Assembly: GCF_013167455.1 (NCBI RefSeq)
Contig: NZ_CP038328.1
Direction: 5' to 3' (one strand)
DNA length: 64,000 bases
Source of the DNA: Escherichia coli O157:H7
GTDB lineage: Bacteria; Pseudomonadota; Gammaproteobacteria; Enterobacterales; Enterobacteriaceae
The position numbers were made by a program. Below, piece by piece: positions 47,301 through 50,300 of this stretch. Positions within the stretch are counted from its first letter, which is position 1. Every line of letters starts with the position of its first letter.

Positions 47301-50300
47301 ATGTTTATTGCGTGGGTTATAAGTATTGTTATTGCATACTTAAGGCCCTTTAGCTCAGTGGTTAGAGCAGGCGACTCATAATCGTCCGGTCGCTGGTTCA
47401 AGTCCAGCAAGGGCCACCAAATCATCATTCATGTATCAGGAAGAGTTAAGGGTACAAGGGTTACTCGATGGCGGTCTATATTTCACGATTAACGCCATTT
47501 CAAGGAAGAAGTGCGGTGGGTGGTTTCGAATGAGGGCTGGTGTTTTGGTACGTGGCACGCCACTGCAATGTATTTATCTATCAGTACTCATTCAAAAGTA
47601 TTTGGAAAAAATGCCTGCTATGCCAAGCGGGCAAATTGCTTACATGTGGAATTAAGTAATTAACGATAAAGCCAGCGTATTATCATTTATTATACCCATT
47701 CATTTAATCAGGTTAATTACTCAAATCACTGAACTATTCTCTGTTCGCTCACTGATGATAAGGGAGTACCACAACCAATGTATGTAGAACAATGCCGTAG
47801 AGTAAGGATGAAATGTCTCTGCCACGCCTTAAACATCTACTACTGACTAGAACACCCGCCGCAGGTAGATGAGTTTTGTGAGCGTTACAGGAGCGTGGCT
47901 ATGCTCATTAATCAACGCTATTTAGATATAAATTTCTAACACTCGAAAAACGATTTTCACTAATAAATTATAACGGGTGGTTTTTATCATACAGCGAAAT
48001 AACCTTTTGTTTATTAAATTTAACATTCCTGTGCTAATTTAATTAAAAGTTCCATGCGTAGCAAGTGAAGCAGTTAATGTCAGCAATTGTCTCAAATGAG
48101 CGATTTTTTATAGTGACAAACAATAATAACATTAAAAATAGCCATGTAGACATTAACTGAGGAATAGAAAATGTTAATTAATAAAAGCAACGGATTTAAC
48201 GCTAGCGCAGTTTGGGGTAGTGGAAGTTATAATGAAAATAAATCTTCTAAACACATGGAGCTACTAGCTCATAGTATTGTAAAATTAATTTGTAAGGAAG
48301 CTGCATCAGAGACGTATCGCGGTGCTCTTGAAATTTTACAAAAAATAATGTCTGAATGTATATATCAAGAAGGCAACGCCTTTGTCATTATGGGAGCTGG
48401 GGAACAATTAAAACGTATTAAATATGATGTTGATGAAAATAACTTAAAGGTATTCAACGTACACTTTGATAATAATGAAGTGTTAGTTACTGATGGTGAG
48501 CCTGACGTAGTATGTTTAAGCAAGCAGGTCTGGGAAAATCTTCTCATTAAATTAAAACCGGAGATCAAGGAAAATGTGGCTTCTGAAGTTCATAAATCAG
48601 CGAATAAAGGTGAGATTGAGCAATTAGTTGAATGGTCTAAAAGAAATGAACAAACCCTTTTCGATAATATAATAAAAAGTGATTTTCATGTTGGTTCACT
48701 TAAGCCAGGTAGTATGAATGGTGTTATTTTAGAAATGCCACCAAATGTCTGTATGGAACCACGTAATTCATATGAAAACAAAATAGATGAGGTTTCATCT
48801 TTGTCAGAGTCAGAGGAACACCCCATAGATATTCAAAAAATAACAGATGCGTTTGTGAAGGAGTTCAAGGGGATATTATTTGATAAAAATGGAAGATCTT
48901 CAGAGCTTCTGTTTAATTTTTATGAATGTTGCTATACGTTTTTACCAAGAGCGCAGCCTCAAGATAAAATCGATAGCTATAATTCAGCACTGCAAGCTTT
49001 TTCCATCTTTTGTTCATCTACGTTGACACATAATAATGTAGGCTTTGATTTCAAATTATTTCCAGAAGTCAAGCTGTCTGGAGAACATCTTGAAACGGTA
49101 TTCAAATACAAAAATGGCGATGATGTCCGGGAGATAGCCAAAATTAACATTACTCTCCAAAAAGAAGAGGGTGGCTTATATAATCTACGTGGATTGGATT
49201 TTAAGGGATGCTTCTTTTCTGGACAGAACTTCAGTAACTATGATATTCAATATGTGAACTGGGGAATGTCATTGTTTGATGTTGATACTCCGTGTATTTT
49301 TAATACGCCTGCTAACCATGAGAGTTATGAAAAATCATTAAAACCTGTAAGCGAAAACGGTTTAAATGGAGTCTTATCTGATCGTAATAAAAAAATAAAA
49401 ATGATCACGGGTGTGGCACCATTCGATGATATTTTATTTATGGATGATGACTTTGATGATAACTCCCCTGAGGATGCTCCCATTGAGAATAGTCCTGTTG
49501 TGAATAGTCCTCTTGTATAAAGTTCTAAAAGCAGTTTTCAATGATAAATAAATGGCAATTTTTATAAAGAGATAATAACGTAGATTGAAACAATATGTAT
49601 TATTGATTGAGTAAACGGGATTATTCTTCACACTACATCCATTTTAGTGTCACTACCAAAGAAAAAGGGGCTACGTTTTCATGTAACCCCTTGATTTATT
49701 TGGTGGGCTGGCAGTGACTGAATTGGTGCTGTAATTGGTTGAAATATTTCATCTATTGTCTGGTTCAACTTTCCTTAGCTGCCTGAAAGTTTTTTGATCT
49801 CACCCAGCAATAACAGCGTTACGGTGCACCACGCCTGACTGAAGAACTGCGTGCTCAGGGTTACCGCTTCAACGTAAAACCGTGGCAGGAGGTCCGGACT
49901 GAAAAAACTGCTCAGGACATCATCGGCAGGGAAAGCACTGCTAGTCTGTAAACTGAACCGACTGGGGCGCAGTATGTGGCATCTTGTCGTGCTGTTGGAG
50001 GAGCTGTGCGAACGTGGTATTAACTTTCGTGCTCTGGCCCAATCTATATTTGCCCAACAATGGGGGGACGAATGCTGTAAAAGTAAAACAATCTGCGATC
50101 TCAAAGTTATTGTGTGATTTTTATGTGAGCAGAAGATATTCATCAGAAACGATTATGTAAATCATTTTATTTTGCCAACGGCCTCATTGTCGAAAGAAAA
50201 GAATACGCCCGTATTTCCTGAATGGATTGACTTTTTTATCCAACCACACTTCAGCGCACTGCGTTTAAAAAATGCCTCATTCTTATGCGGAATATCATCA

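Follow-up and report, generated by a model that had tools for sequence, protein, structure and literature searches.

The open reading frame (ORF) on the plus strand at positions 48171..49520 of a 64,000-nucleotide stretch of Escherichia coli O157:H7 DNA (contig NZ_CP038328.1; the whole stretch is referred to below as the window) is the intact O157:H7 allele of ypjCB, a catalogued gene family, and is the same gene that in E. coli K-12 is broken into ypjC and ypjB. Judging from database searches, its product is an acidic, soluble protein that has no relative detectable outside its own family. On balance, we favor the view that YpjCB is a non-catalytic binding protein that plays a dispensable, accessory part in the small islet lying between the ileY tRNA gene and ssrA, and that selection acts on its C-terminal core. 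ypjCB is an already known and annotated gene without an assigned function; the result is incremental and does not describe a new kind of system.

The initial annotation described a low-GC ORF of 449 amino acids (aa) close to ileY, and this description holds: the frame begins with ATG, has a GC content of 34.6% (28% at third codon positions) compared to 47.9% window-wide, and lies 751 nt downstream of ileY. Between positions 40001 and 54291 (14.3 kb), the window does not differ from O157:H7 Sakai, whose annotation lists the gene as ECs3517, “ypjB, hypothetical protein.” The NCBIfam model NF050179 matches the product end to end (residues 1-449), with a score of 952 bits against a cutoff of 650. 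The K-12 orthologue, ypjC (b2650) plus ypjB (b2649), has 92.6% nucleotide identity to the O157:H7 gene and shares with it a location that has ileY on one side and the pinH remnant and ypjA on the other, as well as the full-length match to the family hidden Markov model. However, the frame that is open here (449 aa) is split in K-12, where codon 161 has changed from CAG to a TAG stop, and therefore databases list two genes, ypjC and ypjB. As to whether the protein is homologous to a K-12 ypjB or ypjC product of known role, which the initial annotation gave as grounds for abandoning its assignment, the orthology is there but the known role is not, YpjCB being a family without an assigned function. 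The gene, its parts, and its upstream signals are as follows:

48087..48114 (+), sigma-70 promoter-like sequence TTGTCT-16-TATAGT, 57 nt upstream of the ypjCB ATG (consensus match only)
48159..48164 (+), Shine-Dalgarno sequence GAGGAA with a 6-nt spacer to the ATG (direct sequence reading)
48171..49520 (+), ypjCB (ECs3517) coding sequence, intact, 449 aa, 100% identical to the O157:H7 records that RefSeq names “YpjCB family protein”
48171..48254 (+), N-terminal 28 residues, Ser/Asn/Thr-rich (11 to 14 of the 28 in every allele, with 1 or 2 acidic residues)
48171..48650 (+), DUF5507 domain, aa 1-160, equivalent to K-12 “YpjC” (Pfam E = 9.5e-87; no confident structure, with a predicted local distance difference test [pLDDT] score of 22-41)
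48753..49517 (+), DUF5508 domain, aa 195-449, equivalent to K-12 “YpjB” (Pfam E = 4.2e-163)
48912..49283 (+), selected core, aa 248-371, which combines the pentapeptide run with predicted helices and a predicted beta-meander of three strands (domain model with pLDDT 77; codon tally)
49179..49283 (+), seven pentapeptide-like repeats, aa 337-371, which would make ~1.75 turns of a quadrilateral beta-helix if the fold is of the Qnr type
49302..49517 (+), acidic Pro/Ser/Asn-rich tail, aa 378-449, predicted to be disordered (pLDDT <50; 14 D/E versus 6 K/R)

Two further allele classes encode proteins of 457 aa (K-12-like, with an 8-residue C-terminal extension) and 484 aa (with a 35-residue linker insert). 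The insert of the latter class, 105 nt after residue 209 (position ~48797 of the window), is absent from the O157 and K-12 alleles and is flanked by a near-repeat, GGTTTCA / GGATTCA, an arrangement consistent with the short alleles having lost a 105-nt segment by deletion.

Comparison of the alleles provides the evidence for selection. The dN/dS ratio (nonsynonymous over synonymous substitution rate) of the whole gene is 0.5-1.0 versus 0.01-0.07 for the neighboring housekeeping gene glaH, at similar dS; the locus has therefore been inherited vertically, and its protein is weakly constrained. In the most divergent pair of intact alleles, the nonsynonymous and synonymous counts do not differ significantly from neutrality (P = 0.12), and those of the folded parts do so marginally (P = 0.03). 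The frame itself is maintained: ~178 substitutions separate the 449-aa and 484-aa classes, and against an expectation of ~7.9 nonsense changes there is not one (P = 3.6e-4). We also tallied, over 15 alleles, the codons that vary in the encoded amino acid and those that vary only synonymously. The core, residues 248-371, has 22 of the former and 19 of the latter, as opposed to 106 and 22 elsewhere (Fisher P = 3e-4), and is the only part of YpjCB with a clear excess of synonymous over amino acid variation. By region, the ratios are 4:5 for the repeat run and 18:14 for residues 248-336, compared to 32:9 for the core of DUF5507, 32:8 for the tail, and 42:5 for the linker. The longest invariant run among 8 intact alleles, residues 336-365, is the repeat run.

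The N-terminus changes fast in sequence while keeping its Ser/Thr/Asn-rich, acid-poor composition. In codons 1-30 (48171-48260), the allele classes differ by 17.5 nonsynonymous and 0.5 synonymous changes, a synonymous deficit with P of ~0.04, for which diversifying selection, a constraint on composition alone, or an overlapping signal could be responsible.

The stretch PENTAPEPTIDE, residues 337-371, was initially described as weakly resembling pentapeptide repeats, and closer analysis strengthens this description. It consists of 7 consecutive pentads in register (YNLRG, LDFKG, CFFSG, QNFSN, YDIQY, VNWGM, and SLFDV), each with a hydrophobic center that is preceded by D/N or a small residue. 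An equally long run arose in 1 of 20,000 shuffles of YpjCB, by a pentad criterion that was set after viewing the sequence. The Pfam pentapeptide models do not match YpjCB at E ≤ 10; as a calibration, they reach only E = 0.15 on the accepted effector EspX1. When all PDB sequences were searched with the YpjCB family profile (E ≤ 10), one of the two matches was the Qnr protein 3PSS, aligned in register to residues 338-371 with an E value of 2.4, not significant alone.

The full-length AlphaFold model is poor (pLDDT 44) and unusable for the N-terminal domain. For residues 212-385, one of five models is confident (pLDDT 77; predicted TM-score 0.77) and shows three helices, a three-stranded antiparallel sheet (residues 294-328), and then short strands every ~5 residues. 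In a structure search of AFDB50 with this model, the best matches outside the family are two “pentapeptide repeat-containing” proteins, the first with E = 4.9e-5 over 162 of 174 columns and a TM-score of 0.39, and the second, from Salmonella Typhimurium, with E = 1.9e-3 and a TM-score of 0.32. Residues 337-371 thus probably form a short pentapeptide-repeat segment of ~1.75 turns. As in Qnr and MfpA (the PF00805 clan), the pentads are in tandem and have a [D/N]-[L/F/I/W] center pattern, and the alignment with Qnr is in register; in contrast to the ≥8 turns of Qnr or MfpA, there would be only ~1.75 turns here, and therefore the run cannot be a rod-like DNA mimic of that type. The run of 7 also falls short of the 8-pentad Pfam unit, has no Pfam match, and, unlike pentapeptide-repeat proteins, sits within a larger protein whose other domains are unrelated.

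No part of the protein has a recognizable catalytic domain. Two other features given in the initial annotation, the lack of a recognizable enzymatic motif and an acidic disordered C-terminus, are both borne out, the disorder by prediction. Pfam searches return DUF5507 and DUF5508 only, NCBIfam its own family only, and neither the PADLOC defense-protein models (no family at E ≤ 1) nor a sequence search of the PDB finds anything. There is neither a Sec signal peptide nor a transmembrane segment (the best 19-residue Kyte-Doolittle mean is 0.69). The acidic string DDDFDDNSPEDAPIENSPVVNSP begins at residue 425, and the MDDDFDD motif of the tail is conserved in the allele alignments. The tail can be likened to the C-terminal tip of the single-stranded DNA-binding protein SSB or to LIR/AP2 motifs, and the string “WENLLIKL” to the WEK(I/M)xxFF translocation motif, but in our view these strings are too short for any weight to be placed on them. 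The promoter candidate is a weak one, because sigma-70-like sites in the region are no more numerous than the shuffled expectation. AUA accounts for 10 of the 30 Ile codons in ypjCB and for none in glaH, and the adjacent ileY tRNA reads this rare codon.

If YpjCB is a binding protein, it would work by engaging a partner through the conserved repeat surface, possibly together with the acidic tail. Constraint is confined to the C-terminal module (approximately residues 248-371), leaving the N-terminal 30 residues, the inter-domain linker, and the acidic tail almost free to change. The role would be dispensable and niche dependent, with the open frame kept by selection in some lineages. The partner could be bacterial or belong to a host; export via type III secretion system (T3SS) machinery is possible and is not indicated by any test made.

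Deletion of ypjC in K-12 slightly increased the colonization of a commensal biofilm by enteroaggregative E. coli 55989, with biofilm counts up 3.5-fold (PMC3646849); a polar effect on ypjA is a possible cause. Hha, a partner of H-NS, binds in both the ypjC and the ileY region and alters the expression of ypjC 9-fold (PMC2408971), which fits an AT-rich, xenogeneically silenced ypjCB.

Several observations weigh against the binding-protein interpretation. The term itself is derived from the absence of catalytic signatures, and the partner is a postulated one. Over the whole gene, substitution counts are indistinguishable from neutral. Part of the core conservation may stem from recombination and not from selection, since the alleles are mosaic and the conserved core has a reduced dS as well. 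The structural model is fragile, given that a single AlphaFold model of five is confident, the full-length prediction is poor, and the TM-scores are 0.32-0.39; the Pfam pentapeptide models miss the protein even at E ≤ 10. Finally, the sole reported ypjC phenotype (PMC3646849) is small and comes from K-12, where the gene is already broken.

The distribution of ypjCB shows how often it is dispensed with. Among 5,426 complete E. coli genomes searched at megablast sensitivity, the gene is present in 3,077 (57%) and missing from the remaining 43%. The exact K-12 91-mer with the TAG stop occurs in 1,223 genomes, and the exact 92-mer with a 1-bp deletion, delC609, in 282; these two lesions therefore inactivate 49% of the copies, and the intact gene is found in at most 29% of the genomes. 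Accordingly, at least 71% of complete E. coli genomes have either no ypjCB or an inactivated copy. In 17 sampled gene-bearing genomes, it is intact in 9 and broken in 8, with multiple hits in strain CE10 and truncation by an insertion sequence (IS) among the lesions. Such numbers, and the dN/dS values and whole-gene counts given above, raise the possibility that ypjCB is a decaying relic with no present function, whose O157:H7 frame is open merely for want of a disabling mutation so far. Several of the lesions are independent, and both neighbors, ygaQ and ypjA, are also broken in the window. We nevertheless find this explanation unlikely, as it does not account for two open classes ~178 substitutions apart with ~8 stops expected, for the significant synonymous excess in the C-terminal core, for 6 intact copies among the 9 sampled 484-aa alleles, or for the retention of a good Shine-Dalgarno site.

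ypjCB travels with ypjA/ehaD as one small islet between two integration hot-spots, ileY and ssrA. The 5′ region of ypjA is found in 3,074 genomes, versus 3,077 for ypjCB. The order ileY-ypjCB-pinH remnant-ypjA is the same in O157:H7, K-12, CE10, SW071620, EC974, MLI107, and VTB97448v, the pinH remnant is present in all sampled genomes, and where there is no prophage insertion, the order is ileY-ypjCB-pinH remnant-small ORF-ypjA-ssrA. The landmarks in the window are as follows:

47344..47419 (+), ileY tRNA with a CAT anticodon, tRNA-Ile2 (AUA decoder), the upstream landmark of the islet (ARAGORN, Rfam, RefSeq; the CAT anticodon is called Met by ARAGORN and tRNA-Ile by RefSeq)
49881..50048 (+), serine recombinase/invertase remnant (K-12 pinH), conserved between ypjCB and ypjA (as annotated by RefSeq on identical DNA and mapped exactly to the window)
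50456..54291 (+), ypjA/ehaD, AIDA-like autotransporter adhesin gene, the constant islet partner of ypjCB, truncated relative to Sakai

The genes around ypjCB have lesions of their own. At the junction at position 54291, the window lacks 1,922 bp that are present in Sakai (positions 9280-11201 of the Sakai locus, L007). This loss removes the last ~750 nt of ypjA/ehaD, encoding the beta-barrel part, together with the annotated Sp17 boundary and ECs_3514, so that ypjA (ORF 50327..54397) is fused to the Sp17 element and has an out-of-frame tail at its end. In PV15-279, ypjA has a different lesion, a frameshift. On the other side of ileY, the alpha-amylase-like gene ygaQ/ygaR is split in the window into two ORFs (44531..45538 and 45545..46783, minus strand). 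K-12 carries it as a pseudogene, and intact copies, 2,253 nt long, occur in CE10, SW071620, and EC974. From these lesion patterns, ygaQ, ypjCB, and ypjA decay independently in different lineages. In CFSAN061772 (NZ_CP042893.1), an IS1 element cuts ypjCB to 72 nt, and the occupants of the site include IS2, recombinases, two genes of the ParB-like type, and a toxin-antitoxin defense pair, DarT/NADAR (DarG-like); these insertions mark the ileY-ssrA interval as an integration hot-spot. An aah/tibC-like glycosyltransferase role for a gene upstream of an AIDA-type autotransporter was considered and dropped, as Pfam detected no glycosyltransferase domain.

A location of this kind could also point to some other conflict gene, such as a single-gene anti-phage defense or an inter-bacterial competition factor residing in an integration hot-spot. 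ypjCB adjoins a tRNA gene, lies between two integration sites, and in another strain shares its spot with DarT/DarG and integrases; its presence is patchy, its protein evolves fast, it is frequently lost, and the only PHROGs family that it matches, which is ypjCB itself, was built from prophage-annotated regions. We still consider a conflict role very doubtful, given the lack of any PADLOC match or recognized effector enzyme domain, the lack of any match in real phage genomes, and a dS similar to that of the core gene glaH, which favors vertical inheritance over mobility.

The initial annotation characterized the protein as effector-like. Stated in full, this would make the ypjCB product an unrecognized substrate or effector of type III secretion, through either the locus of enterocyte effacement (LEE) or the E. 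coli T3SS 2 (ETT2), and loosely similar to EspX, EspY3, or PipB2. The Ser/Asn-rich N-terminus would act as the secretion signal, and the pentapeptide module and acidic tail would engage a host protein. Some features agree with this proposal. The carrying lineage has the LEE: the window is identical over 14.3 kb to Sakai, whose LEE lies at selC and includes escN, escV, tir, and eae, so the carrying strain does have a T3SS. In all alleles, the first 28 residues have the Ser/Thr/Asn-rich, acid-poor composition listed above, which is unspecific. An accepted E. coli effector, EspY3, has short pentapeptide runs of 8 and 9 (PMC6313403), and EspX1 is of similar size (473 versus 449 aa), Escherichia-restricted, sub-threshold in Pfam, and equally orphan-like. 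One of the two best structural matches outside the family is a Salmonella pentapeptide-repeat protein, and ypjCB lies in low-GC, Hha-bound DNA and is broken in K-12, which has no T3SS. In common with EspX1, EspY3, NleL (EspX7), PipB, and PipB2, the gene is AT-rich, Escherichia-restricted, and carried by a LEE-positive strain, and, as in these effectors, the C-terminal half of its product has a short run of degenerate repeats that Pfam sees barely or not at all.

The remaining evidence runs the other way. The exhaustive phmmer search reveals no sequence or profile similarity to EspX1 or any effector, and BLASTP and hhalign comparisons with EspX1 and its family give probabilities below 1%; the search for EspX1 relatives stopped short of PipB2, and no deep effector profile was built. 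NleL, SopA, and PipB2 were not recovered from the PDB, and unlike the effectors named above, YpjCB has no WEX5F or HECT-like domain. Neither the presence nor the intactness of the gene tracks the LEE. In genome totals (this was not a genome-by-genome cross-tabulation), escN is found in only 696 genomes, compared to 3,077 with ypjCB, so at least 77% of the carriers have no LEE. Intact ypjCB is found in non-enterohemorrhagic isolates from urine, chicken, gull, stool, and wastewater, whereas the LEE-positive O111:NM strain 08-4377 (escN+) lacks the ileY-ypjCB segment. Pentapeptide repeats and Ser-rich N-termini are not effector-specific, and no paper mentioning ECs3517 was found in the searchable literature (searches with Z-numbers gave noise). 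The features described in the initial annotation, the pentapeptide run and the acidic tail among them, are right, but the effector label is unproven and has poor support in the distribution of the gene. We regard both the general proposal and the mechanism attached to it as improbable, and a little more so its broadest version, in which YpjCB would be a widespread unrecognized LEE or ETT2 substrate whose mini repeat module and acidic tail dock on a host protein.

The family, as far as sequence databases reach, is restricted essentially to E. coli-like sequences. Exhaustive phmmer comparison with 1.84 billion cluster representatives gave 43 hits, all of them ypjCB alleles or fragments except for one borderline protein (P0163). 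In a collection of 5.8 billion proteins, the best 120 of 439 matches are all from E. coli or E. coli-like organisms, with at least 86% identity. The plasmid collection yields mislabeled chromosomes and a single short fragment, the latter on an IncHI2 plasmid. A genome-collection scan that relied on just one peptide pattern, and a poor one, turned up a lone E. coli-like contig, which suggests that species-representative genomes of other genera lack ypjCB; the scan was otherwise uninformative. That contig, DEQI01000374.1 (2.8 kb, with ypjCB at 86% identity), comes from a metagenome-assembled genome labeled “Planococcaceae bacterium” and is almost certainly an E. coli contig that was mis-binned there.

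The borderline protein, which consists of a LamG domain and four PA14 domains, was the sole non-family match of the exhaustive search (E = 3.6e-4, residues 297-356) and might suggest that the C-terminal domain of YpjCB is a degenerate PA14-type carbohydrate-binding domain. What is shared is a local similarity of residues 297-356 to the junctions between successive PA14 domains, matched four times over. YpjCB has no complete PA14 domain and neither a Pfam match nor a fold match to PA14. We rejected this lead as a repeat-inflated junction match and consider a PA14 origin hardly credible.

Elsewhere in the window, three consecutive tyrosine-recombinase-like ORFs of 403, 441, and 543 aa (Sakai ECs3512, ECs3511, and ECs3510) occupy 55020..59174 (+), in DNA of ~30% GC at the edge of the Sp17 element. 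The 432-aa ORF at 60480..61778 (+), Sakai ECs3507, contains near its C-terminus a perfect Pro-Glu dipeptide repeat of ~45 units; 12 gapped positions in this region between the window and Sakai suggest that the repeat number varies between strains. A Ser/Arg tRNA cluster is located at 12792-13423, and Rfam detects the small RNA MicA and the nucleoid-associated RNA naRNA4 at 16334-16405 (-) and 23003-23080 (-), as expected for this part of the chromosome.

ypjCB is among the larger E. coli ORFs that still have no function, and the two pseudogene fragments in the reference strain K-12 are part of the reason why it was overlooked. Recognition of a single, intact two-domain protein, with selection on its C-terminal repeat module and co-inheritance with ypjA/ehaD, makes the gene easier to test. 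If it did encode a secreted effector, this would add a chromosomal, non-prophage member to the repertoire of enterohemorrhagic E. coli, with an open frame in O157:H7 and in as many as one-third of E. coli, and the breakage in K-12 would explain the lack of study. If it does not, ypjCB would be a well-documented case of a gene restricted to E. coli, retained by some lineages and lost by others.

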